A DNA stretch of 23,745 nucleotides from Candidatus Heimdallarchaeota archaeon (GTDB lineage: Archaea > Asgardarchaeota > Heimdallarchaeia > Heimdallarchaeales > Heimdallarchaeaceae): the NCBI GenBank assembly GCA_016840095.1, contig JAEOSZ010000008.1:1-23745 (forward strand), given 5' to 3'. Each line of letters begins with the position of its first letter. The stretch's first letter is position 1. The position numbers were made by a program, and so were the translations under genes. The notes under the pieces were generated by a model that did no database searches, was not told the DNA's origin, and was given only the letters and a program-made list of their open reading frames with translations. Positions 1-13,935 of this stretch are shown one piece after another.

Positions 1-561
1 AACTTTCTTAACAGAATTGTTTTCCACTTTAATGTTATTCACTGATTCTTTGAAGAAATATTCTGCTCCTTGAAGCTTAGATTGTTTTTCCATTACAGAC
101 AGAGTTTTCAAAGGTGAAGAATTTCCATCTTCTGGAGAATAAGTTCCTCCCCTAAGACTTTCCTCTTCAATTCCAGGTACTAGTTCCATTATTTTATCTG
201 TATCAACCCAGTTGATATTCAAACCTGCTTCCTTCTGTATCTTCAGATTATCCTTCATGAGTTGTTCGTGGTCTTCATTATATGCAACAAACGTATATCC
301 ACCTTGGAACCATTCAACATCATGTCCATACTTCTTCTCCCAGTTTGAAACCATATCTATGGAATCTTGACACAGTAGAATCTTTGAAGCATTAGTGTGT
401 GTTGCTCTTATTCCACCAATAGCCTTCTTATTCTGACCTTGACCGACAGAAGGTAGAGATTCAATTACTGCAACTTTCAATCCAGCTTTAGTTATTGCAT
501 ATGCCGCTGGAACACCTATACTTCCAGCTCCAATTATCAAGACGTCATATCTCTTATCCAT
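1..561 (-). CDS. FAD-dependent oxidoreductase, DAO/sarcosine oxidase beta / L-proline dehydrogenase beta-like subunit (3' end runs off the window)
   Basis: Not in the ORF track. Manual translation from ATG at 561 gives MDKRYDVLIIGAGSIGVPAAYAITKAGLKVAVIE...GQNKKAIGGIRATH, a GxGxxG Rossmann fold. It starts 1 nt after the stop of the upstream gene. Confidence 0.85.
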   Translation of the reverse strand, partial: MDKRYDVLIIGAGSIGVPAAYAITKAGLKVAVIESLPSVGQGQNKKAIGGIRATHTNASKILLCQDSIDMVSNWEKKYGHDVEWFQGGYTFVAYNEDHEQLMKDNLKIQKEAGLNINWVDTDKIMELVPGIEEESLRGGTYSPEDGNSSPLKTLSVMEKQSKLQGAEYFFKESVNNIKVENNSVKKV

Positions 562-562
562 T

Positions 563-2653
563 TTACTCGTCCTCCTCAGATCCTGTGAAATATCTCAAAG
601 GTACTTCAATGAATAGCGGTCTTTGTACAAATGGTGTTATTTCATCAAAAGCAATTCCTTCTTCTCTGAATAATTTGTCTATCAGTTTTGAACATGTTTT
701 AGCTCCACAAGCTCCCATTCCTATTTTCGTTATTGCCTTCAATTCATTAGCATCAATTATTCCTTGTTTTATTAGCTCTCTTATCTCACCAGCTGTTATT
801 CTCTCACATCGACAGATTATAGCTTCATCTGGAATAATTTCTTGAAACTTCTCAATTTCCTTCATTTTGAAATCTTTGGAAATCTTGAAAGATACAGCTT
901 TCAAAGCTACTTCCTTTGGCAGCTTCACTGTGACCAATTGTGTTTTGGGATATTTTTTAAGAGTTCGAACTTTCTCTACTTTCTGAATCCCCAAATCATT
1001 TCCATCCTCATCAACTACAATTAGTTCTTCTCCTTCCTCAATTTTACGGACGAATACTTCAGTAGGAATTGTAACTTTAGGTTGATTGGAATCTTCTCTA
1101 TAATCTACGAGTGTAGCTGCTAAACCTGGACAAACAGCAACACATTGAGCACAGCCTATACACTCCACATCTTTTTGTTGAAACTCAGGTAAACCTAGAA
1201 TTCCTCCTTCTGGAATCACAATTAACTCTTTTGGACAAACTGATGTACAAGGATTACAAGGTATCTCTTGGTTACAATGAAAGACTGGATAGACTCCTAC
1301 TTCTTCAATCGGTTTTTCTCGTTTAATTACAGGACCAGGATGACTCTTAAGAATTTCAGCCTTCTCTTCCCATTCTGTCGGAACGTCTTCATCTGTCAAT
1401 CCCAAAGATTTACCAATTTTCATACCTGATATCTTTCCGCTGAACATTGCAGATGAAGCTTCAGCTATCTCTAAAGCATCACCAGCTGCCCAAACATCCA
1501 AACCAAATTCTTTTGCTTTTGTGTAAAATTCATCCACTGGATCAAGACCAATTGCGATAAGAACTGTATCAACTTCGAAAGTTCTTTCTGTTCCTTTTAT
1601 AGGTTGAAATTTTTCATCTATTTCGGAAATAGTAACTGATTCAACATGATTCTTTCCATGAACTGCAACAACTGTATGACGAGTGAAAATGGGAACATTC
1701 AATCTTCTGAGTTTATCTTCATGTACTTTATATCCACCACATTTAGGTAGAGCTTCTACTAATCCCACTACTTCAATACCAGCTTGGATAGCATGGTAAC
1801 CAGCAATAATACCAACATTACCTCCACCAATGATGAAAATCTTTTCACTTGATTTTACTAAATCTCTGTTTACTAATGTCTGAAATGCTCCTGCCCCATA
1901 TACACCAGGAAGAGAGTTACCTGGAAAAGCAAGCATCTTCTCCCGTGCTCCAGTAGCTACTAATAATTTCTTAGGATTTATATGAACATACTTTTCCTTT
2001 TTCAAAACTCCAACAAGTTTATCTGAAAAGACAGCAATACAGGGGCTATCGAGCCAGATTTCAATGTTTTCAAACTCCTTTAATTGGTCTTCAAGAATCT
2101 TTGCAATATCAATTCCTCGAGTCCCAGCAAAGGAATCTTTCACTGATCCAAAGAATTTGTGCGTCTGTAGGAGAAGCTTTCCTCCCAACTTATCTTTATC
2201 ATCAATGAGTATAATCTTAGCTCCTAACTTTCCTAATGTAAGAGCTGCTTGTAATCCAGCAGGACCAGCTCCAATTATCAGAACATCAGTATCTATTGTT
2301 GGAATTGGTTTGAATACAACTTTTTCATTGTCATCAGGTAAAGGAGGATAATCATTAACACTTTCTATTTTCTGTCCTTCTTCCAAAGGTGTCATGCAAG
2401 ATTTGAGAGCTAATCCATCAACAAGAACTGTACATTGAGCACATTGTCCATTTGCACAAAAAATACCTAGAGGTGCTTTATCTTTAGGATGATTTCCAAA
2501 AATCTGGATTCCATTGGCTATTAGAGCGGAGGATATCATCTCTCCCCTTTTTCCAAAGAATTCCTTACCATCAAAGGTAAATTTAGTTAACTCATACTCT
2601 TCTTCGTCTAGAATTGGATGCTCCTTTATTCTTCTCTGTTGGTTGGAAAACAT
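563..2653 (-). CDS. Multidomain FAD/NAD(P) oxidoreductase: 2Fe-2S + pyridine nucleotide-disulfide oxidoreductase + 4Fe-4S dicluster + BFD-like 2Fe-2S (proline dehydrogenase/sarcosine oxidase alpha-type)
   Basis: FCANGQCAQC...SC (2Fe-2S); IIGAGPAGL and IIGGGNVG (FAD/NAD); CNPCTSVCP and CIGCAQCVAVCPG (4Fe-4S); ICRCE...GMGACGAKTC (BFD-like). Confidence 0.88.
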   Translation of the reverse strand: MFSNQQRRIKEHPILDEEEYELTKFTFDGKEFFGKRGEMISSALIANGIQIFGNHPKDKAPLGIFCANGQCAQCTVLVDGLALKSCMTPLEEGQKIESVNDYPPLPDDNEKVVFKPIPTIDTDVLIIGAGPAGLQAALTLGKLGAKIILIDDKDKLGGKLLLQTHKFFGSVKDSFAGTRGIDIAKILEDQLKEFENIEIWLDSPCIAVFSDKLVGVLKKEKYVHINPKKLLVATGAREKMLAFPGNSLPGVYGAGAFQTLVNRDLVKSSEKIFIIGGGNVGIIAGYHAIQAGIEVVGLVEALPKCGGYKVHEDKLRRLNVPIFTRHTVVAVHGKNHVESVTISEIDEKFQPIKGTERTFEVDTVLIAIGLDPVDEFYTKAKEFGLDVWAAGDALEIAEASSAMFSGKISGMKIGKSLGLTDEDVPTEWEEKAEILKSHPGPVIKREKPIEEVGVYPVFHCNQEIPCNPCTSVCPKELIVIPEGGILGLPEFQQKDVECIGCAQCVAVCPGLAATLVDYREDSNQPKVTIPTEVFVRKIEEGEELIVVDEDGNDLGIQKVEKVRTLKKYPKTQLVTVKLPKEVALKAVSFKISKDFKMKEIEKFQEIIPDEAIICRCERITAGEIRELIKQGIIDANELKAITKIGMGACGAKTCSKLIDKLFREEGIAFDEITPFVQRPLFIEVPLRYFTGSEEDE

Positions 2654-2728: not shown

Positions 2729-5692
2729 CTAATAATAAGACTTTCTCCTACGAATGAAGAATTTGTATGTTTCAAGCGTTACTAAAGGTATAGCTATTGC
2801 TATTAACACCACCAGCCAGTCAACTATCCCTAAAGGTATGAACTCAGGTAAGAAGGGGAAAATCTTCCCAACTAAAAGCTGGAGAGGTTTGATATACATT
2901 AGCAGAATATGAAGAATTGGTACAATGAACACTAAAATGAAGACAATCCATTTTCTATCTTCTTTGAACGTTCGAAAGACAGACTTATTCAATCTTCTCA
3001 AACTTAAAACAACAAGACTTTCAGCTATAACAAGAACTGTGACAAACATTGTTCTTGCTTTAGCATGTCCAAAATTGATAGGAGAAGAGATACTTGAACC
3101 AGGATCACCGCGGAGAATTGGAAGGATTCCAGTGAGGTTAAAATCAGTAATCTGAAGAATATTGAGATATCCAAATAGATATACAATTCCTCCAGAGAAA
3201 GCAAGTGTCAAAGCTAGAACAACTAGAGCTAAAACATACCTTTTATTGAAAATTTCTTCATCATCTCTAGGAGGATAATCCATTATCTCATCTGCAATAC
3301 TATCGAAGATAAAAGCAAATGGTGGTATTAGATGTGCGGTAGAGAAAATATAAACACGCTGGAAGTCATTAACAATATGAAATCCTGTGATGAAAGAACT
3401 AGCAAAATAAAGGATAGCTTCAGCAATGTTGAGAGTAATGTAAAAGAAAATCATAACACGAATACGATCAAACAATCCACGACCTTCACGTATACCTAAA
3501 ACAGTACTAGTAAAACTATCATCAGCAATGACTACATCAGAAGCTTGTTTAGCAACTTCAGTACCAGCGATGCCCATACAAATTCCAACATCAGCATTGG
3601 TCAAAGCCAATGCATCGTTGACACCGTCGCCTGTCATTGATACAATTTTGTTTATTCCCTGATACTTCCCTACTATTGTCTGTTTGTGTTGTGGAGAAAC
3701 TCTAGCAAAAATTCTTGTATTGAAGAACTCCTTATCAGTTAATTTCTTTATTTGATTCCCTTCTACTGCTAATTCTCCTCCTCTTATCATCCCTACTTCT
3801 TTTGCTATTGCTTTTGCAGTTACTGGACTATCTCCAGTTATCATTATTGGTGTTATTCCTGCTTGATAACATTCTTCGACTGCATTTTTCACTCCATATC
3901 TTGGTGGATCTAACATACATACAAAACCGTTGTATATCAGCTCACTTTCTGCTTCTGCTCTGCTACTTGGTATAATCGTATCTGCTTCCATTGGTCGCAG
4001 TGCTAGAGATATTACTCTGTATCCTTGAGCTGCAAATTTTGTTACATGTTCCATTATCTTTTCTTTGTCTTGTTTTGTAATTTCTCTATTATTTTCTGGT
4101 CTTCCTATATGGGTACATAATGGTAGTACTGTTTCACTTGCTCCTTTGCAGAACAATGTATATCCTTCCGTATCTTGGAAAGTTTTACTCATTCTTTTGA
4201 GCACAGAATCAAAATTAAATTCTGATAGATATCCATATTGTTTTCTTACTTCTTTCTCTATAATTCCTGATTTGTTAAACAGTGCAAGAAACGCTCCATC
4301 TGTTGGATCTCCAGTAGTCTTCCATGATATCTGATGGTGAGGTTCAAACACTTCCTCAACAATTAAATGAGCATTATTATTGAGTAATCCTCCAATTAGC
4401 AAATATTCTAATTCTGAATCTTCTGCAAATGGTTTAAGCGAATCTGGCAGGTGATATTCATCAAATGATTCTGGGTACTCTTCTCCAAGAGGATAAATCG
4501 CTCCTTTGCTACTATAACCAACACCTGATACGCCGTAAAATTGATCTGTATCCCATATTCTTTGAATGGTCATCTGGTTTGAGGTTATTGTTCCTGTTTT
4601 ATCACTGCATAAGATTGAACTTCTCCCTAAAGTTTCAACGGCTGATAAGTTCCTGATGATCACTCTATCTTTAGCCATTGATAATACTCCTGTGAGAAGA
4701 ATTAATGTTGTTAATAGGGGAATACTAATGGGCATAATTGCCATCGATGTTGTTACTGATATTACTATATCCTCTAGAAATGCAATATCTCCTAGAGTTC
4801 CATCAATGGAATGTAATATTGATTTGTATACAACTGAAACAACAAGAAAGGCTACAACTGCTAATCCAAGCCATTTCGCTAACCTATTAACTTTAGAACG
4901 AATTGGGATTTCATTTGAACCTATCTCTTGAAGTTCTGTTGACAATTTTCCTAATTCAGTATAAACTCCAGTACTTGTTACTATAGCTATTGCTCTTCCC
5001 ACTTCTAGAAAAGTTCCTGTATAGAGCATGTTTACTCTTTGAGAAATTGGTGTATCTTCTTCGAGACATTCTTGTGGAGTGTTTGTTTTCTCTACTGCTA
5101 CAGATTCACCTGTAAGTGCACTTTCATTTACCAAGCAATTACTCGCATAAATAATCCGAGCATCAGCAGGTACTCTGTCTCCTTGATCTAATTCTATCAA
5201 ATCTCCAGGAACAAGTAAATCAGCTGTAATACTTTCAGGAACTCCATCTCTAATAACTGTAGATGATGGGGCTGACAGCTTATGTAACGCATCAAGTTTG
5301 AATTGAGCCCTAATTTGCTGAAATATTGTAAATACTATGTTTGCACCTATTATAGCCATCCAGAAACCTATTTGACTCCAAACATCTCCGGAATCAGCTT
5401 TATACACAAATGCTTTGATTAAACCTAAAATGACCATAATTAGAGCAACTATTAGATAAATATTGATTAACCAATTGAGAAGAGGGGAGATATAGACATC
5501 CCATATTGAACCTTTTACCTTAGGAATTACATTGGTTCCGTACTGTTCCAGTCTTTGCTCAGCAATCTCATGCTTAAGACCAAATTTGATATCGGTTTCT
5601 AGCCCATAAGTTATCTTGTCTATTGTTGCATTATGTGGACAAATTTCTATTTGTTCATCATATGTCTGCTTTTTTTTCCCCATGATGTTCAA
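2729..5692 (-). CDS. P-type ATPase, P2-like scaffold with atypical membrane ion-binding residues; substrate unknown
   Basis: PGD, LTGES, CSDKTGT, GDPTD, KGA, DPPR, MITGD and TGDGVND motifs; about 10 TM segments; M4 reads PISIP instead of PEGLP. Confidence 0.93.
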   Translation of the reverse strand: MNIMGKKKQTYDEQIEICPHNATIDKITYGLETDIKFGLKHEIAEQRLEQYGTNVIPKVKGSIWDVYISPLLNWLINIYLIVALIMVILGLIKAFVYKADSGDVWSQIGFWMAIIGANIVFTIFQQIRAQFKLDALHKLSAPSSTVIRDGVPESITADLLVPGDLIELDQGDRVPADARIIYASNCLVNESALTGESVAVEKTNTPQECLEEDTPISQRVNMLYTGTFLEVGRAIAIVTSTGVYTELGKLSTELQEIGSNEIPIRSKVNRLAKWLGLAVVAFLVVSVVYKSILHSIDGTLGDIAFLEDIVISVTTSMAIMPISIPLLTTLILLTGVLSMAKDRVIIRNLSAVETLGRSSILCSDKTGTITSNQMTIQRIWDTDQFYGVSGVGYSSKGAIYPLGEEYPESFDEYHLPDSLKPFAEDSELEYLLIGGLLNNNAHLIVEEVFEPHHQISWKTTGDPTDGAFLALFNKSGIIEKEVRKQYGYLSEFNFDSVLKRMSKTFQDTEGYTLFCKGASETVLPLCTHIGRPENNREITKQDKEKIMEHVTKFAAQGYRVISLALRPMEADTIIPSSRAEAESELIYNGFVCMLDPPRYGVKNAVEECYQAGITPIMITGDSPVTAKAIAKEVGMIRGGELAVEGNQIKKLTDKEFFNTRIFARVSPQHKQTIVGKYQGINKIVSMTGDGVNDALALTNADVGICMGIAGTEVAKQASDVVIADDSFTSTVLGIREGRGLFDRIRVMIFFYITLNIAEAILYFASSFITGFHIVNDFQRVYIFSTAHLIPPFAFIFDSIADEIMDYPPRDDEEIFNKRYVLALVVLALTLAFSGGIVYLFGYLNILQITDFNLTGILPILRGDPGSSISSPINFGHAKARTMFVTVLVIAESLVVLSLRRLNKSVFRTFKEDRKWIVFILVFIVPILHILLMYIKPLQLLVGKIFPFLPEFIPLGIVDWLVVLIAIAIPLVTLETYKFFIRRRKSYY

Positions 5693-5848: not shown

Positions 5849-6661
5849 ATGAGTGAGCAACCATCCGGTCCTCCAACTGGTCCTCCAACTGGTCCAACAG
5901 GTTTACCTCCACGAGGTCCAATGTTTATGAGGGATGAATATCAAAACCTTATTGATGAATTTACTAAAGACGTTAAAGCTGATTTGAAGAATGAAGTAGA
6001 TTGTCTTCTTCTAGTAGGAAGTGTTGTTACTAAAGAACACATTGCAGGAGAATCAGACTGTGATTTTGTGATGATTCTCAAAGACAAAGCAGCTGGAGAT
6101 AACTTAGAGAAAACCATGGAGAAGATTAGTGAAGTTGTTGCACATTATTTAGAAGATCCTCTATATAGTTCTCTTCTAGATGTGGAAGTATTAACAAGCG
6201 AAGAAATCCCCACTGATGGAGTAGAAACTGATTATCCTTGGACAAGAGTTCTTGTTGCTCAGATGGGTAAAACTCTGATTGGGAAAAATCCATTTGAAAA
6301 GGTAAAATTAAAAGAAGAGGATATCAAAAAGTCAGCAAAACAAATGGCAGAAATGTTCCTCGAACAAATGGTTGAGATTCCTAAATTGAGTGAAGAGGAA
6401 GCAGATGAATATGATAAACTCTATCTTACTGTTGATGCTGTTTTAGGCTGTGGTTGTGCTTATCTTTATTACCACGGTGAGAAGGAATTTTACAGAAGTT
6501 CTGCTATTATCTTATTTGAAGATAAATACAAAGATAAGATTAACATTGAACCCATTCAGATTAGTCACAGATTACGATTAGCTGCAAAGACAGTAAATAC
6601 AGATAAATTTACTGAAAAATCACTAAAATTCTGTAAAGAAGTTGTTAAACAACTTACATAG
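5849..6661 (+). CDS. Pol-beta superfamily nucleotidyltransferase with Pro-rich N-terminus and helical C-terminal domain
   Basis: LLVGSVV...GESDCDFVMIL (GS + DxD) and a third carboxylate in LDVEVL. Confidence 0.75.
   Translation: MSEQPSGPPTGPPTGPTGLPPRGPMFMRDEYQNLIDEFTKDVKADLKNEVDCLLLVGSVVTKEHIAGESDCDFVMILKDKAAGDNLEKTMEKISEVVAHYLEDPLYSSLLDVEVLTSEEIPTDGVETDYPWTRVLVAQMGKTLIGKNPFEKVKLKEEDIKKSAKQMAEMFLEQMVEIPKLSEEEADEYDKLYLTVDAVLGCGCAYLYYHGEKEFYRSSAIILFEDKYKDKINIEPIQISHRLRLAAKTVNTDKFTEKSLKFCKEVVKQLT
5867..5895 (+). repeat. 12-bp coding tandem repeat GGTCCTCCAACT x2.4 (GPPT repeats)
   Basis: ggtcctccaact ggtcctccaact ggtcc read directly from the sequence. Confidence 0.85.
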
Positions 6662-6674
6662 GAAGGATGAGAAT

Positions 6675-7331
6675 ATGTCAGTTCAGCCTAGAATCGATAT
6701 GCTTGTTCAAAGTGTCGAGAGTGCTTTGATACTTATGAGCGGAGAATCTGGAACTACAAAAGAAAAGCTAGCTCAAAGGTATATTGAAGATGGACTCACT
6801 AATGGTGATACAATTCTAATTGTTCTTTTTGCTTCTTCAGTCGATGACTTCATCAAAGAACTTAAACCAAATATTACAGGTCTAAAAACACACATCGATA
6901 CAGGAAGAATTCATTTCATAGATTCAATCTCATATAGATCATTCCCTGAAGAATTGCCAAAAAATACTTTTTACTTAGATCATGCAAGTGATTTACTTAC
7001 ACTCTCTGTTACAATCGATGATTTATCTGAAAAAACTAAAAATCTCAGGATTGTTTTTGATCAATTAGCAATTTTAATGTTATACAATAAGCCAATGCAA
7101 GTACTGAACTTCTTACAAACTCTTGTAGCTAGAATAAGAACAAGAAAGCAATCAGCTCTTTTACTACTTGATTCAGGAGTTATAGATGAACAAACAGAAA
7201 ATACTCTCCATACAATTGTTGATATAGTAGTAGAAACAAAACGAGAGGATGAACCTGAAGGCCTTCAACAACTTGTAAGAATCAAGTTTGCTAAAGGTGA
7301 TTTTGAGCCAAGATGGGTTCAAGTTCTTTGA
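6675..7331 (+). CDS. KaiC/GvpD/RAD55-family RecA-fold protein, probably catalytically inactive
   Basis: ILMSGESGTTKE (degenerate Walker A), IHFIDSISY, RIVFDQL (Walker B-like), IVDIVVE, VRIKFAKG. Start placed at ATG 6675 after GGAAGGA, which avoids overlap with the upstream gene. Confidence 0.72.
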   Translation: MSVQPRIDMLVQSVESALILMSGESGTTKEKLAQRYIEDGLTNGDTILIVLFASSVDDFIKELKPNITGLKTHIDTGRIHFIDSISYRSFPEELPKNTFYLDHASDLLTLSVTIDDLSEKTKNLRIVFDQLAILMLYNKPMQVLNFLQTLVARIRTRKQSALLLLDSGVIDEQTENTLHTIVDIVVETKREDEPEGLQQLVRIKFAKGDFEPRWVQVL

Positions 7332-7357
7332 ACTATTACTTTTTACCCATTTTGCAT

Positions 7358-8374
7358 TCATTTTTTGAATCTAAAATATCCCAAGAGAATAACTGTTGCT
7401 CCAAAGAAGCTTAAACCTATAATGAAAGCTGTTAAAACCCACCCTTTTTCTTCTACTTCTTCTGGAGATAGAAGAGCAAGTAAGTCATATTCTATCATAT
7501 CAATGTAGGTGAAGACATTATTTATTCCAAGGAGTGGTGTAAGTTTTGCTAGTTTCGCATTTGTATCTCTAGCAATTTGAAAAATTAGTCTTTCCTCTAT
7601 TTGAGGTTGAGTTACTATAATTGAAACATTTTCCGTTATCATTGTATTAACGATTTCTTCAATGTGTTGAGCTGATGGTTCAGATCCTTCATGTTCTTCA
7701 ATAACGCCCATTCTCTCAATTCCCAATAAATTCAAAAGATAGAGAAAAGATGGATGGTGTACAACTACTCTTAATCCTATAGTCTGATTATAGGGAGCTT
7801 CTTGTATATCTAACAGCAAATTATCAAGCTCCACAAGATAACTATCTCGGTTTGTTTCATATTCTGCTTGGTGAGCTATGTCAAGTAAAACAACTTCTGT
7901 AGTTATATTATGAACGAAATTCTTAACATAGTTTGGATCCATCCACAAATGAGGATTCTTATCACCTGTCAATGGATCAGTTTCCATCATATCATAAGTA
8001 GCTAATTCTAATACATTTAAACTTGAATATTCTGAAGCATCTAAGTCTATCCAAGATTCTAAACCTGGTAAACCCATGATTATGAAAAGATCAGATTCTA
8101 GAATCATCTTGATATCACTTGGCAACAGCTCAAATGTATGAGGGTCCTCTCCCCCTGTAACAACAGCTGCGGGAACAAATAGACCTTCACCAATTTCAGT
8201 TGCCCAGTCAGCGATTACCGATATACTTGCAACAACTTTGATTTCACCCGTAGGTTCATCTGCATACCTTAAAACAGCATCTATTTCTAAAACATTTCCA
8301 GAAACAGCTGATGCTGTAAATAGTATCATTAACACTGTACTAAAGCAGGCAATTCTTCCTAATTGGAGGTTCAT
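7358..8374 (-). CDS. znuA: Zn/Mn ABC transporter substrate-binding protein (ZnuA/TroA family) with C-terminal membrane anchor
   Basis: N-terminal signal peptide; EDPHTFE, NPHLWMDP, VHHPSFLYL, EPSAQHI; C-terminal TM helix followed by RFKK. Confidence 0.87.
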   Translation of the reverse strand: MNLQLGRIACFSTVLMILFTASAVSGNVLEIDAVLRYADEPTGEIKVVASISVIADWATEIGEGLFVPAAVVTGGEDPHTFELLPSDIKMILESDLFIIMGLPGLESWIDLDASEYSSLNVLELATYDMMETDPLTGDKNPHLWMDPNYVKNFVHNITTEVVLLDIAHQAEYETNRDSYLVELDNLLLDIQEAPYNQTIGLRVVVHHPSFLYLLNLLGIERMGVIEEHEGSEPSAQHIEEIVNTMITENVSIIVTQPQIEERLIFQIARDTNAKLAKLTPLLGINNVFTYIDMIEYDLLALLSPEEVEEKGWVLTAFIIGLSFFGATVILLGYFRFKK

Positions 8375-8434
8375 TCAAATTACTTTCCTTCTAACTTATT
8401 TATTATTTGTCGTTAAACCACAATTAACAAATAG

Positions 8435-9556
8435 TTGAAGACTTTAAAATATCTCATGGCTCTTGCAGATAGGTTTCTGAATACATACAAAGAAACTCCA
8501 TACATCAAAGCACTCTTAATGTTAATAGTGTTAGGTGGTCTCGTAGCTATTACTGTAGTCTTTATTGATAATTTTCTCATTAGAGCTCTTGCTACAGCTC
8601 TGATAATAGGAATTTTAGGAGGAGTAATTGGTGTTTTTGTCCTACTAAAAGGAATGGTTTTCCTTGGAGAAGCTATTGCCCATTCAGCTTTTGCTGGTGC
8701 AGCACTAGGAATATTGTTGGGAATTGATCCTTTAATCACAATTATCGCATTTGGTTTGGTAGCTTCTTTAGGGGTAGGTTACGTTAATGAGAAGAAAATA
8801 ATGAAAGATGAGGTAATTATTGGCATAGTGTTCACAAGTTTTATGGCTCTAGCAATTTTGTTTATTGGTCTCATGCCTTTTTATTCAACTGATGTTAGGT
8901 CTATACTATTCGGAAATATTTTTCTTGTTACAATTGAGAACATAGTCATTCTCTTTTTTGTTGCCCTTTCAGTTCTAACAATAATCTTCGGTCTAAAAAA
9001 GGAATTATACTTCATGACATTTAACCAAGAAATGGCTTCAATTAATGGAATTCCTGTAAGATTTCTGAACTATCTGTTTTTAGCTTTGATGGCAATCACT
9101 ATTGATATTTCTCTAAAAGCTGTAGGAGCTATTTTGGTCTTTGCTATGATAATTACTCCAGCAGCTGCAGCATATCAATGGACTTTCAAATTGAAAAAAA
9201 TGATGATTTTAAGTAGTATTTTTGGTGTTTTATCAGGATTCTTAGGTGTTGCAATGTCTTATCTTTGGGATTTGCCTTCTGGATCAACTATTGTTGGAAT
9301 AGCTACATTGATTTTCATTATCTCATTCGTAGCGTCTCCAAAACGAAGAAAATCAGGAACTGGACACGTAGTGGCAGACTGTGAATATTGTTCAAGGACT
9401 ATTTTAGGGAAGCAATATTGTTTAGAAGACAGTTGTGTTGCAAAAGATATTCCTCATAAACATGATGAAAAGGGATTGATCATCTATAAAACCGATGTAG
9501 GGAAAAAGAAAGTACCTACAAAACATAAACATGATATCGGAGGGGATGAACAATGA
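8435..9556 (+). CDS. znuB: Zn/Mn ABC transporter permease (ABC-3 family) with Cys/His-rich C-terminal extension
   Basis: GEAIAHSAFAG, LFGNI, VGAILVFAMIITPAAAA motifs. Start may instead be ATG 8456. Confidence 0.88.
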   Translation: MKTLKYLMALADRFLNTYKETPYIKALLMLIVLGGLVAITVVFIDNFLIRALATALIIGILGGVIGVFVLLKGMVFLGEAIAHSAFAGAALGILLGIDPLITIIAFGLVASLGVGYVNEKKIMKDEVIIGIVFTSFMALAILFIGLMPFYSTDVRSILFGNIFLVTIENIVILFFVALSVLTIIFGLKKELYFMTFNQEMASINGIPVRFLNYLFLALMAITIDISLKAVGAILVFAMIITPAAAAYQWTFKLKKMMILSSIFGVLSGFLGVAMSYLWDLPSGSTIVGIATLIFIISFVASPKRRKSGTGHVVADCEYCSRTILGKQYCLEDSCVAKDIPHKHDEKGLIIYKTDVGKKKVPTKHKHDIGGDEQ

Positions 9557-10293
9557 GTGTTACAACATCAGATGAAATTGTTATCTGTTTGAAAGATATC
9601 AATGTTGTTTATGGAAATTTAGTTGCTTTGTATGATGTTAATGTTGATATTCATAAAGGAGACTTTCTCGGTATCTGTGGTCCAAACGGTTCAGGGAAAA
9701 CAACTTTGTTGAAAACAATTATGGGATTACTTAAGCCATTGACAGGTCAAATTGCTTTATTTGGTAAAGAACTTGTAGATACAATTCCCAAAGAGACCAA
9801 ATTTAGATTTGGCTATGTTCCTCAAATTTCTGAAATAGATAGAAATTTCCCAGCTTTAGTAAGAGATGTAGTGGAGATGGGGAGATATGCAAAAGCTGGT
9901 TTAGTAAAATCACTGAAAAGTGAAGACAAACAAAAAGCAATTGACGCTCTAAAACTGGTAGAAATGGATCACATGTTAGAAAGACCTATAGGTCATCTTA
10001 GTGGAGGACAACAACAAAGAGTTTTGATCGCACAAGCACTCGCAGCTGAAGCTGAAATATTGTTATTAGATGAATTCACAAGTGCTTTAGATTTTAAAAT
10101 GACTGAGGAAGTTATGGAACTATTGGATTATCTAAATCACACTCATGGACTTACAATTGTAACTGTTGGCCATAATATTGAGTTACTTAGAGCTTATTGT
10201 AATAGAATAGTTTGCATTGATAAGATAATCGCATATGATGGAGTTCCAGACACCCCTGATCTAGATGTTGTTATAGGACAAATCTTCCACTAA
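9553..10293 (+). CDS. znuC: Zn/Mn ABC transporter ATP-binding protein
   Basis: GPNGSGKT, GYVPQ, LSGGQQQRV, LLLDE and H-loop; ATGA overlap with the permease gene. Confidence 0.92.
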   Translation: MSVTTSDEIVICLKDINVVYGNLVALYDVNVDIHKGDFLGICGPNGSGKTTLLKTIMGLLKPLTGQIALFGKELVDTIPKETKFRFGYVPQISEIDRNFPALVRDVVEMGRYAKAGLVKSLKSEDKQKAIDALKLVEMDHMLERPIGHLSGGQQQRVLIAQALAAEAEILLLDEFTSALDFKMTEEVMELLDYLNHTHGLTIVTVGHNIELLRAYCNRIVCIDKIIAYDGVPDTPDLDVVIGQIFH

Positions 10294-10736: not shown

Positions 10737-11753
10737 CTACTTAGAATCTGGTAGCCGCTCAAATTTGCGTTTTTTAAAAGTATCCTCATATTTTTCATGA
10801 AAGTATGATTCATCATATTCAGCTTTGTATTCTCTATCTTTAGGAACAATCAGGTTTATTGCATCATCAATCCTTTCAGTTTCAACCACAGGACTCTCAA
10901 AATTATATATTTCTCCTTCTGTTGAAAAGATTAAAGGTTCTCCATGTGACTCGATTACAACTTTCCTTCCTCTTGAGCACCAAAATCCTTCTATCCCAAT
11001 ATGCTTTCCTGGGATTGCTTTTGCTAGCATAGCTATTCTAGCCATCCCTTTCTTTCCATGTAGAATTCCTATCCCTAAATCATTGTTCTTTTTACTAAAA
11101 ACAGTGTTTCCAGGAAGTACTCTAAAACCAGCAATGTCATCGGCTAAGGAAACAAAGATATTAGTTAATTTTTCAATTAGGAGAGGTTCATTGTCATCAA
11201 TAGTGACGGTACAAGGAACATTTTTGAATTTAAGAACATATTTGACTGCAAGATAATTGTATTTGATAGCACCAATTTTCATCCATTTCATCTCATGATG
11301 TGCAGCGTAAGATGCTTTTCCTGTAAACCCTGCATCAGTCATATCAAAAGAATAAGATTCTTCATCTCCCTTACATTTTATTGCGGCGAATTTTTCACTA
11401 TGCCCTTCTGCTAGTACAGCTAAACTTTCTTCTATATCATAAGGAATTGAATTGGTTCTATGCCAATCACACATTGATCCAGCAGAAATTAATCCTAAAG
11501 TTACATCAGGATGGTTAACAACAACATTTCCCATGTTTGTAGCTGTTCCATCGCCTCCATAAGCAACCAATGTTTTGTAGCCTTCATCAATGGCTTTTTG
11601 TGCCAATTCAATCTCATGTCTTGGTCCTTCTGTTGTTGCATAGTCGAAATCCCCAAGATATTCTTTGGCAAGTGCAACTGATTTCTCTAAATTCTTTCCC
11701 AATCGACCTGTATTTGCGTTAGGGTTAACTACAACGAATGGATCTTTAATCAT
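10737..11753 (-). CDS. Diacylglycerol/sphingosine kinase family lipid kinase (YegS/DgkB-like)
   Basis: VVNPNA, GGDGT, AGSMCD (variant of GTxND), EGE near the C-terminus. Confidence 0.82.
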   Translation of the reverse strand: MIKDPFVVVNPNANTGRLGKNLEKSVALAKEYLGDFDYATTEGPRHEIELAQKAIDEGYKTLVAYGGDGTATNMGNVVVNHPDVTLGLISAGSMCDWHRTNSIPYDIEESLAVLAEGHSEKFAAIKCKGDEESYSFDMTDAGFTGKASYAAHHEMKWMKIGAIKYNYLAVKYVLKFKNVPCTVTIDDNEPLLIEKLTNIFVSLADDIAGFRVLPGNTVFSKKNNDLGIGILHGKKGMARIAMLAKAIPGKHIGIEGFWCSRGRKVVIESHGEPLIFSTEGEIYNFESPVVETERIDDAINLIVPKDREYKAEYDESYFHEKYEDTFKKRKFERLPDSK

Positions 11754-12214: not shown

Positions 12215-13003
12215 TTATTTTTCTTTTTTTTCTTCAAAAAAATCTTCTAATTGTGCACTCTTTGATCTCTTTATAGTTGGAAAGACTTGATCCCATGCAA
12301 TTTGTTTGGCTTCTAAGTAATTTTTATTAAGGTATTTCAAAACTTTGTCAGGAAAATTTGGCGCAACTAAAATTCCTTTTACAGATTTTTTCTCTTTTTC
12401 AGTGAAATATTCTATATATCTTTTGAGTTGATGAGCATCAGCAGGTGTTGCATTTCTCTTCTTCACTTCAATAATTGTTTCTCCATCTTTTCCTATACCT
12501 CTAATATCTACAGGTCCAACATCTGTATTATACTCTGTCCGTATTACTTGAAATCCATCTTCTATAAGCTCAGGATTCGCAACTAGATATTTCACTAAGT
12601 CACTTTCATCCCCATAGATAGTAATTGCAGTTTCATCTTGAGCATGCCATAATGCAACAAAGGCTATTTGGGAAAAAACAATAGATAGAATCTCTTTAGT
12701 CTTTGTCCTTTCAGTTATCATTTCTAAGAAGTATTCTTTGAGTGAAAAACTAATAGGACCCGCTTGTGGTTTTTGCCAATTTAGAGGTTTTACACCAATA
12801 GGTCCATGCATAATAATGGATAGGTCTCTTTTAATTACTAATAGTCTATCTCCTTCATCTAAGAATGATTTGATTCTTCCATCAAAGGTTGCAGTGCATT
12901 TTCCTGAAATAATAATCATCTTATCTCCAACTGCAGAATTTAGTCGTTTAGCAAGTTCAGATAATGGTTCTACAGATAATTGCTCGAAGTTTAAGGGGAA
13001 CAT
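12215..13003 (-). CDS. nucS: Endonuclease NucS/EndoMS
   Basis: C.ATFDGR, KPLNWQ, GDESDL, EYNTDVGPVDI, IEVKKR, QLKRY, GILVAP. Confidence 0.93.
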   Translation of the reverse strand: MFPLNFEQLSVEPLSELAKRLNSAVGDKMIIISGKCTATFDGRIKSFLDEGDRLLVIKRDLSIIMHGPIGVKPLNWQKPQAGPISFSLKEYFLEMITERTKTKEILSIVFSQIAFVALWHAQDETAITIYGDESDLVKYLVANPELIEDGFQVIRTEYNTDVGPVDIRGIGKDGETIIEVKKRNATPADAHQLKRYIEYFTEKEKKSVKGILVAPNFPDKVLKYLNKNYLEAKQIAWDQVFPTIKRSKSAQLEDFFEEKKEK

Positions 13004-13119: not shown

Positions 13120-13935
13120 ATGGCGGACCCATTTATTGTTTATCAAACTATGTTATACATTCAGATGTCTGTTGTTATAGTATGTTTACTATTTGGATCA
13201 ATTATGGACTTGATAAAAAGAGAAGTTTCAAACATACCTTGGATAATAATGACGGTTACTGGAATAATTACTTCAATAGTTCTCATTGTTTTCGCAGCAG
13301 ACAAAGGCAAAGTTGGAACCATGTTTGGTGTTAATATTGGTGTTGGAATAGTTATGGGATTATTACTCTATTATACTGGAGTTATGGGGGGTGCTGATGC
13401 TAAAGCTGTTATGGCTCTCTCTTTCAATACACCCGTTTATTTCTTCAATTTTGCTTTCTTATTAGCTCCAATATATAATTGGGTACCACCAATTTTTAAC
13501 ACATTCTTTAACTGGTTATTGGCAATGGTAATCTTCTATCCACTACCTTTACTATTTTACAATATATATTATAAATTAAAAGGGAATGTTCTATTCGAAA
13601 AATCTGATGGAAATTTTGCTTCGAAAATACTAATGCTTATTTCTGGATATCTAATTCCAGTTGAGAAAGCAAAAGATAGGCATGATATTGTTTATTCAGA
13701 AGAATATGATGAAGACACAGAGAAATGGGAAATAAAGCATTTCATGCAAGTAGTTGAAGTTGAAGAAGAAGAAGAATTCAAGAAAGAAGTAGAAGAGGAT
13801 ATAGAAAAAACTGGAAGAAAGAAGATTTGGGTCAAAGTTCTCCCTCCAGGAATAGTATTCTTACTCATTGGGTATGTAGTTAATATCCTTCTTGGAAATA
13901 TTTTCTTTCTTATTTTCTACTATACTTTGGGATGA
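13120..13935 (+). CDS. Prepilin/prearchaellin peptidase (A24, FlaK/PibD-like)
   Basis: Catalytic aspartates in IMDLIKREV and MGGADAK; multiple TM segments; C-terminal IWV..LPPGIVFL. Confidence 0.85.
   Translation: MADPFIVYQTMLYIQMSVVIVCLLFGSIMDLIKREVSNIPWIIMTVTGIITSIVLIVFAADKGKVGTMFGVNIGVGIVMGLLLYYTGVMGGADAKAVMALSFNTPVYFFNFAFLLAPIYNWVPPIFNTFFNWLLAMVIFYPLPLLFYNIYYKLKGNVLFEKSDGNFASKILMLISGYLIPVEKAKDRHDIVYSEEYDEDTEKWEIKHFMQVVEVEEEEEFKKEVEEDIEKTGRKKIWVKVLPPGIVFLLIGYVVNILLGNIFFLIFYYTLG

Follow-up and report, generated by a model that had tools for sequence, protein, structure and literature searches.

The transport specificity of a P-type ATPase is read from a handful of residues in the transmembrane helices M4, M5, M6 and M8. 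The gene analyzed here encodes such a pump and lies in a stretch of 23,745 nucleotides from an Asgard archaeon (contig JAEOSZ010000008.1 of the assembly GCA_016840095.1, Candidatus Heimdallarchaeota archaeon, positions 1 to 23,745 of the forward strand), in the following called the window. Asgard archaea are the nearest prokaryotic kin of eukaryotes. The best sequence and structure matches of the pump are the P2A ATPases, i.e., LMCA1 of Listeria (PDB 6zhf/9euq), SERCA1/2 and SPCA1, with which it shares the domain order, the fold, the spacing of 43 residues between the M4 proline and the phosphorylated aspartate, the motifs TGES, DKTGT, DPPR, TGD and GDGVND, the N..E pair of M5 and the glutamate of M8. 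It differs from them in that Ile, Phe, Ala and His take the places of E309, N796, T799 and D800 of SERCA, in its neutral M1/M2 and in belonging to a clade of its own (support 1.0). P4 and P5 pumps are considered unique to eukaryotes, and undescribed prokaryotic families are expected (2023 review, PMC10654040). A precedent for prokaryote-only families with a remodelled M6 and unexpected transport is provided by the P6 ATPase CtpE of Mycobacterium and the unassigned CtpH and CtpI (PMC10654040). Compared by description only, CtpE keeps PEGL in M4 and has its M6 Asp changed to Ile (PMC10654040), whereas in the pumps described here the M4 Glu is replaced and M6 carries a His. We show in the following that these pumps form a distinct, conserved and monophyletic subfamily of the P2 lineage, apparently uncharacterised hitherto, to which we refer by its M4 and M6 signature as the PxNxP/His family. 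On balance we regard the pump of the window as one for a small ion, distinct from canonical Ca2+ pumps as well as from lipid flippases, a reading suggested by its sequence and held with fair confidence.

The coding sequence of the pump occupies positions 2729..5683 on the minus strand (984 amino acids; stop codon 2729-2731), and the translation of 2729-5692 on this strand reads 'TTSMAIMPISIPLLTTL...CSDKTGT'. In the preliminary description the open reading frame had been given as 2729-5692; the frame is indeed free of stops, but its start had to be moved from the TTG at 5692 to the ATG at 5683, three codons further inside, where the protein begins with MGKKK as do its homologues. Residue numbers are nevertheless counted from the TTG at 5692 throughout. 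M4 reads AIMPISIPLL, with Pro321 exactly 43 residues ahead of Asp364 of DKTGT, as had been noticed before. In ungapped HMMER alignments to LMCA1 and SERCA2, Ile322 of the M4 motif P321-I-S-I-P325 (4718..4732, minus strand, as are all features of the pump) falls on the position of E309, the Glu of PEGLP. Alignment to the same two proteins shows that in M6 (QRVYIFSTAHLIPP, 3320..3361) the residues N796, T799 and D800 have become F783, A786 and H787 (codon at 3332-3334), and that M5 (N755-I-A-E758, 3419..3430) and M8 (E891, 3020..3022) keep the equivalents of N768/E771 and E908, respectively. Thus the side chains of site II are now hydrophobic (E309 to Ile, N796 to Phe) and site I survives as Asn755/Glu758/His787/Glu891. 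These replacements (I322, F783, A786 and H787) bear out the earlier expectation that the site-II side chains are lost and that Ca2+ is probably not handled in the canonical way. An Arg added in M6 (R779), which had been listed with these changes, varies across the family and is not a conserved feature. We know of no characterised pump that combines a hydrophobic residue in M4 and a His in M6 with retained glutamates in M5 and M8.

Relatives were collected by word-indexed and exhaustive HMMER searches, yielding 266 sequences, and a FastTree phylogeny was built on 237 of them. All 139 sequences without the M4 Glu form a single clade (support 1.0) with no canonical sequence inside, and the pump of the window belongs to this clade and scores 1549 bits on the family profile. 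The signature of the family is P-[I/V/L/F/W]-[N or S]-[I/L/F]-[P or V] in M4, N..E in M5, with the Glu invariant, His in M6 and Glu in M8; the sole representative departing from it is P0131, which differs at the M6 His and carries Gln in M8. Ile follows the M4 Pro in 94% of the 139 members and in 0/98 of the canonical relatives, and His stands at the position of D800 in 99% of the family and in 0% of the 98; among the latter the M4 Glu is found in 99% and the M6 Asp in 93%. Given this conservation, the M4 motif is not a product of chance. Besides I322 and H787, the positions P70, Q126 and Q130 are specific for the family; in the canonical relatives these five places are occupied by E, D, Q, E and E, respectively. 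P70, Q126 and Q130 are located at the cytoplasmic ends of M1/M2, so that the acidic lining found there in canonical pumps is neutralised in the pump.

The usual M4 motif of the family is PINIP. The PISIP motif is limited to a Heimdallarchaeaceae-like subclade of 27 tips (support 1.0), which is nested among PINIP sequences, and even there the third residue of the motif is S, A, T or M, the basal members reading PIAIP, PITIP and PIMIP. The conservation of PIS[IL]P across homologues, which the preliminary description had proposed to check, is thus not observed. From the nesting and from the basal variants we conclude that the Ser is a derived and loosely constrained residue and not an ancestral flippase-like one. 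On the deepest branches of the family the E309 position is taken by aromatic residues (PFNFP, PWNFP, PWSFP and PVNFP in P0148, P0150, P0161, P0146, P0159 and P0174 and at the loci L029 and L030).

The earlier view of a P2 scaffold was confirmed by Pfam architecture, alignments to SERCA and LMCA1, and Foldseek matches alike. The protein contains Cation_ATPase_N, E1-E2, Cation_ATPase, Hydrolase and Cation_ATPase_C, the full P2/P3 complement. The top NCBIfam hidden Markov models (HMMs) are those of the types IIA2 (416 bits), IIA1 (412 bits) and IID (397 bits), all under their equivalog cut-offs (798 for TIGR01522, score 416; 703 for TIGR01116, score 412). The closest solved structures are LMCA1 (1.9e-108) and SERCA2, and a PDB search with the M5-M10 half alone yields no chains other than those of P2A and P2C pumps. 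An AlphaFold (AF2) model computed from the family alignment (predicted local distance difference test, pLDDT, 84; predicted template modelling score, pTM, 0.79) has M4 broken at 320-322, and of its top Foldseek matches 50/50 are SERCA, SPCA, LMCA1 or Na,K/H,K pumps. The catalytic motifs had been called intact, and this holds: the dephosphorylation motif TGES of the A domain (residues 194-197, 5102..5113), the phosphorylation motif D364-KTGT (4589..4603), K516-G-A of the nucleotide-binding N domain (4139..4147), DPPR, TGD and the P2-type hinge motif GDGVND of the P domain (3614..3631) are all present and invariant in an alignment of 57 family members. Judging from these motifs, the protein is probably a working E1/E2 pump of the P2 lineage.

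The most far-reaching proposal made for this gene was that it encodes a prokaryotic precursor of the P4 lipid flippases, in which the M4 Ile would act as a hydrophobic gate for the lipid head and the family would be the archaeal sister of P4. At first sight some features speak for it. The pump has Ile at the E309 position, followed in its own clade by Ser, as in the PISL motif of flippases; in both groups M6 carries two consecutive Pro residues near the cytoplasm (..LIPPFAF.. in the family, ..ALPPFAI.. in real P4 sequences). The host belongs to the Asgard phylum, the case in which the proposal had been said to matter most: the closest named relative of the protein, from Candidatus Heimdallarchaeota archaeon AB_125, is 90% identical, and other near matches are labelled Heimdallarchaeaceae. 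In a sister subclade, moreover, a gene of the lysoplasmalogenase family (YhhN) is kept upstream of and co-directional with the pump gene.

We therefore compared the family with real P4 sequences, namely ATP8A1-type proteins (P0284-P0301) with the domains PhoLip_ATPase_N/C, which were retrieved with a 40-residue ATP8A-type seed used for this purpose only. The described P4 features are the Asp of DGET, which is unique to P4, the Ile gate of PISL and a P4-specific insert in the linker from M4 to the P domain (PMC11460456). The real P4 sequences read NNLIPISL(Q/L)V without a second Pro, and have DGET, GDGANDV and YKN in M5. The linker is 10 residues longer than in the pump; in six real P4 sequences the M4 Pro precedes the Asp by 53 residues, and the spacing of 43 is shared by the pump, its P2A and P1B paralogues, the MgtA of Paenibacillus and a P3A ATPase of Methanobacterium. 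Hence of the P4 hallmarks DGET, the spacing of 53, GDGAND, the K-N of M5, PhoLip_ATPase_N/C and the P4 HMM score all fail in the pump, which has TGES, GDGVND, N..E in M5 and two carboxylates in the membrane. A hydrophobic Ile or Val after the M4 Pro is not exclusive to P4, as P3A H+-ATPases carry PIAMP or PVAQP at this place.

On the P4 model TIGR01652 (cut-off 431) the pump reaches 88.9 bits, which is below the 101.9 and 99.1 bits of the two PEGLP pumps of the same genome. Other family members reach 100-147 bits; the top score, 147 bits, belongs to P0148 and is still far under the cut-off. Across 121 Asgard genomes the P4 model gave nothing at E<=1e-45 in a search run without a positive control. 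When the comparison was turned round, the family HMM gave real P4 proteins 9-17 bits more than a canonical P2A HMM did, and two P1B controls moved by +20 and -10 bits. Since one P1B control thus shows such an excess too, the small one of P4 is not read as affinity, and the family HMM leaves the M4 segment of a real P4 wholly unaligned.

The phylogenetic trees did not place P4. Their P4 sequences were all of the animal ATP8A1 type, MgtA and P3A were represented by a single sequence each, that of P3A being partial, and P5, P2B-D and P4B pumps were absent. Under LG+G4 (73 rows) the family and the canonical P2A pumps lie each on one side of a branch, with values of 98 and 96, respectively, in the Shimodaira-Hasegawa-like approximate likelihood ratio test (SH-aLRT); P4 joins the P1B outgroup, where long branches meet. 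A tree constrained to unite the family with P4 was even 1.76 log-likelihood units better under this model, and with p=0.5 in the approximately unbiased (AU) test this grouping is left standing. Under LG+C20 with posterior mean site frequencies (47 rows, MgtA and P3A added) P4 came to lie on the P2A/P3 side, its stem measuring 6.2 substitutions per site, and the family was split off with SH-aLRT values of 83 and 93; the P3A and P3B sequences, too, were found on the side of the canonical P2A pumps and separated from the PxNxP/His family. On the ancestry first suggested the trees are thus uninformative, the AU test under LG+G4 not rejecting it and the C20 tree placing P4 elsewhere.

As to the flippase subunit, a search of the host genome (89% complete) with PF03381 (CDC50) gave no match, the search having no positive control among prokaryotes; with this limit the earlier statement that no CDC50-like gene neighbours the pump holds for the window and the genome. 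P4A flippases and P4C pumps have a CDC50 subunit, and P4B pumps need none. YhhN was likewise not found in the genome of the PISIP pump. Taken together, ancestry of the family with P4 is not supported, the characters giving no support and the trees leaving P4 unplaced. Lipid transport by the PISIP pump is unlikely, and the fuller proposal of a lipid-head gate in an archaeal sister of P4 is very improbable. Equally remote is the more general idea that the family does not pump cations but substrates of a polar organic or lipid-like kind, which would pass a hydrophobic gate in M4, or that it is a surviving archaeal sister of P4 (or P5). On the present data the family does not inform the question of how the lipid flippases of eukaryotes arose.

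Among small ions, Ca2+ is one to consider, as homologues of the pump are annotated in databases as Ca2+-transporting ATPases. The retained equivalents of N768, E771 and E908 would allow a single hard divalent cation, Ca2+ or Mg2+, to be bound at site I only, which would be the mirror image of PMCA, SPCA and LMCA1 with their site II only, and the P6 pump CtpE still moves Ca2+ with its M6 Asp changed (PMC10654040). Against this, D800, which bridges both Ca2+ sites of SERCA, is the very residue that is His in nearly the whole family, the gating residue E309 is hydrophobic, and the scores fall far short of every equivalog cut-off. The genomic inventory also argues against it. The host assembly (3.44 Mb) encodes five P-type ATPases, i.e., two P1B pumps of the CPC type, two ordinary P2A pumps with PEGLP and N..TD, which reach 614-634 bits on the P2A equivalog HMMs, and the PISIP pump. 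With two canonical pumps already present, the PISIP pump appears to be an extra specificity and not the Ca2+ pump of the cell. We therefore consider transport of Ca2+ or Mg2+ improbable, if less so than that of lipids.

A better case can be made for protons. In P3A H+-ATPases, too, the M4 Pro is directly followed by a hydrophobic residue, the M4 Glu is missing and a second Pro comes four residues on: in plants M4 contains GGIPIAMP (PMC9708826), and the Methanobacterium P3A (919.7 bits on TIGR01647) reads PVAQP. By analogy, the buried pair Glu758-His787 could act like the pair Asp684/Arg655 of P3A, and the hydrophobic M4 residue would seal the old site II. The loss of the acidic M1/M2 residues suits a substrate which does not need a cation funnel, and the wide spread and frequent tandem duplication of the gene in Asgard genomes are compatible with a proton pump as well. 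On the other hand, the Asn/Glu/Glu ligands of site I are kept (T799 is not), which would be superfluous for a single-proton site, and the M6 carboxylate on which P3A pumps depend is precisely the residue that has turned into His. On TIGR01647 the pump scores 300 bits, with a cut-off of 615.5 bits. By analogy with P3A we regard H+ transport via the Glu-His pair as a possibility of limited likelihood, close behind the borderline metals considered next.

As leading candidate substrate of the small-ion pump we tentatively name a borderline divalent metal (Mn2+, Fe2+, Zn2+, Co2+ or Ni2+), while assigning this choice itself a rather low probability. It is favoured by two carboxylates in combination with the His that has replaced a hard-oxygen Asp. 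In such a mechanism one small cation would bind to the remodelled site I (N755/E758/H787/E891) beside the unwound M4, would be occluded upon phosphorylation of Asp364 and would then be released on the opposite side. The gene neighbourhood lends weak support to a metal substrate. Genes for Zn/Mn-type ABC uptake (Znu) are located 1.7 kb from the pump gene and are syntenic beside a 78%-identical homologue at locus L006; genes for DtxR-type repressors are found 2-5 kb from the pump in three related loci and a nickel superoxide dismutase (Ni-SOD) in one.

Several observations weigh against a small-ion pump specific for such a metal. The metal context (Znu/DtxR) does not hold family-wide: tblastn searches of 73 further family loci with ZnuA, the ABC-3 permease and Fur gave no match, and DtxR was found once. 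The neutral M1/M2 entry funnel, as predicted from the sequence, would be poorly suited to taking up divalent cations from the cytoplasmic side. In the clade of the pump itself, the M4 Asn, which probably serves as a ligand in other members of the family, has been lost. Finally, the geometry of the site comes from the alignment to SERCA and not from model coordinates. An identified substrate would give a well-studied superfamily a new specificity class and reveal which substrates other than Ca2+ and Cu/Zn are pumped by Asgard cells. Cultured carriers of the family exist (Lokiarchaeum ossiferum, Dehalogenimonas etheniformans and D. formicexedens), so that its function is directly testable.

The PxNxP/His pumps are among the commonest P-type pumps of Asgard archaea. 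With the family profile, matches of >=950 bits were obtained in 67/121 sampled Asgard genomes, often as tandem pairs. Reading 17 matches one by one, we found PxNxP and His in all those of >=783 bits and PE[GAS]LP with N..TD in all those of <=711 bits. Tandem pairs are seen, for instance, at G025:C86:1220-7492 and G040:C32:125900-131733 and also in the genomes G049, G113, G071, G008, G057, G030, G019 and G083, and the partners of some pairs differ in their M4 motif, e.g., PINIP beside PINLP in G040. For the distribution beyond these genomes the back-translated sequence PINIPLLTT was scanned against one genome per prokaryotic species; this pattern replaced generic ones from the flanks of TGES and ADDSF, which had returned mostly ordinary P2A pumps. 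Among 80 loci read, 73 encode true P-type ATPases and 7 are chance bacterial matches. The true matches, among those listed, are nearly all from Asgard archaea, including the cultured Lokiarchaeum ossiferum; the others come from at least two Nitrososphaeria, at least one member of the Bathyarchaeia and at least one Aerophobetes bacterium. Further carriers are Korarchaeota and Dehalogenimonas, with D. etheniformans and D. formicexedens as named strains. The family is thus mostly, yet not solely, an Asgard one and occurs sporadically in other archaea and in a few bacteria. In a literature search on Asgard taxa and P-type ATPases we found no paper describing it; a transporter census lists a 'putative Ca2+ ATPase TC 3.A.3.2.21' for all Asgard proteomes.

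The surroundings of the pump genes vary. Seven contexts that were read gene by gene differ from each other and no neighbour is conserved family-wide; when 12 candidate neighbours were compared by tblastn with the 73 loci, only YhhN (6 loci, one subclade) and DtxR (the single case mentioned above) were recovered. The YhhN-family gene (PF07947) encodes a membrane protein and lies just upstream of the pump gene in the same direction. The pumps of this subclade have the M4 sequence 'IKAMSVVPINIP' and are 65-89% identical to P0072 (loci L011, L119, L134, L138, L174 and L176). The gap between the two genes is about 90 nucleotides in L011 (5207-5908 with 6001-9009) and 150-230 nucleotides in the five other loci, and the two genes have stayed together even though YhhN itself has diverged, most pairwise comparisons of the YhhN proteins giving an identity of only 36-38%. 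It is possible that YhhN and the pump are a functional pair.

In the window, the pump gene is followed after a gap of 75 nucleotides by a co-directional gene for a 696-amino-acid Fe-S flavoprotein (1-2653, minus strand, together with the next gene) with the domains Fer2_4, Pyr_redox_2, 4Fe-4S and a BFD-like 2Fe-2S domain. The next gene, for a DAO-type FAD oxidoreductase, is cut off by the edge of the window. Genes for a pump (the 78%-identical homologue), the flavoprotein and the oxidoreductase also lie together at L006, and the three genes may form an operon in the clade of the PISIP pump. Upstream and divergent (5849-7331, plus strand) there are a gene for a protein of 270 amino acids without a Pfam match and one for a KaiC/DUF7504-like protein of 229 amino acids. 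The Znu genes occupy 7358-10293, the gene of the ZnuA-type binding protein (minus strand) being divergent from those of the ABC-3 permease and the ABC ATPase (plus strand). This gene order around the pump recurs at the 78%-identical homologue. Farther away follow a homologue of DAGK_cat/YegS-type lipid kinases (10737-11753, minus strand), which is found near the pump in L006 too, a NucS endonuclease gene (12215-13003, minus strand) and the gene of an archaeal type-IV prepilin/preflagellin peptidase (A24 with Arc_PepC_II; 13120-13935, plus strand). In one further genome the family occurs together with a Kdp system: on a contig of 599 kb, a gene for a KdpB-like P-type ATPase and kdpC (L013:1-1681) are located upstream of a pump gene of the family, at a distance of ~4 kb.

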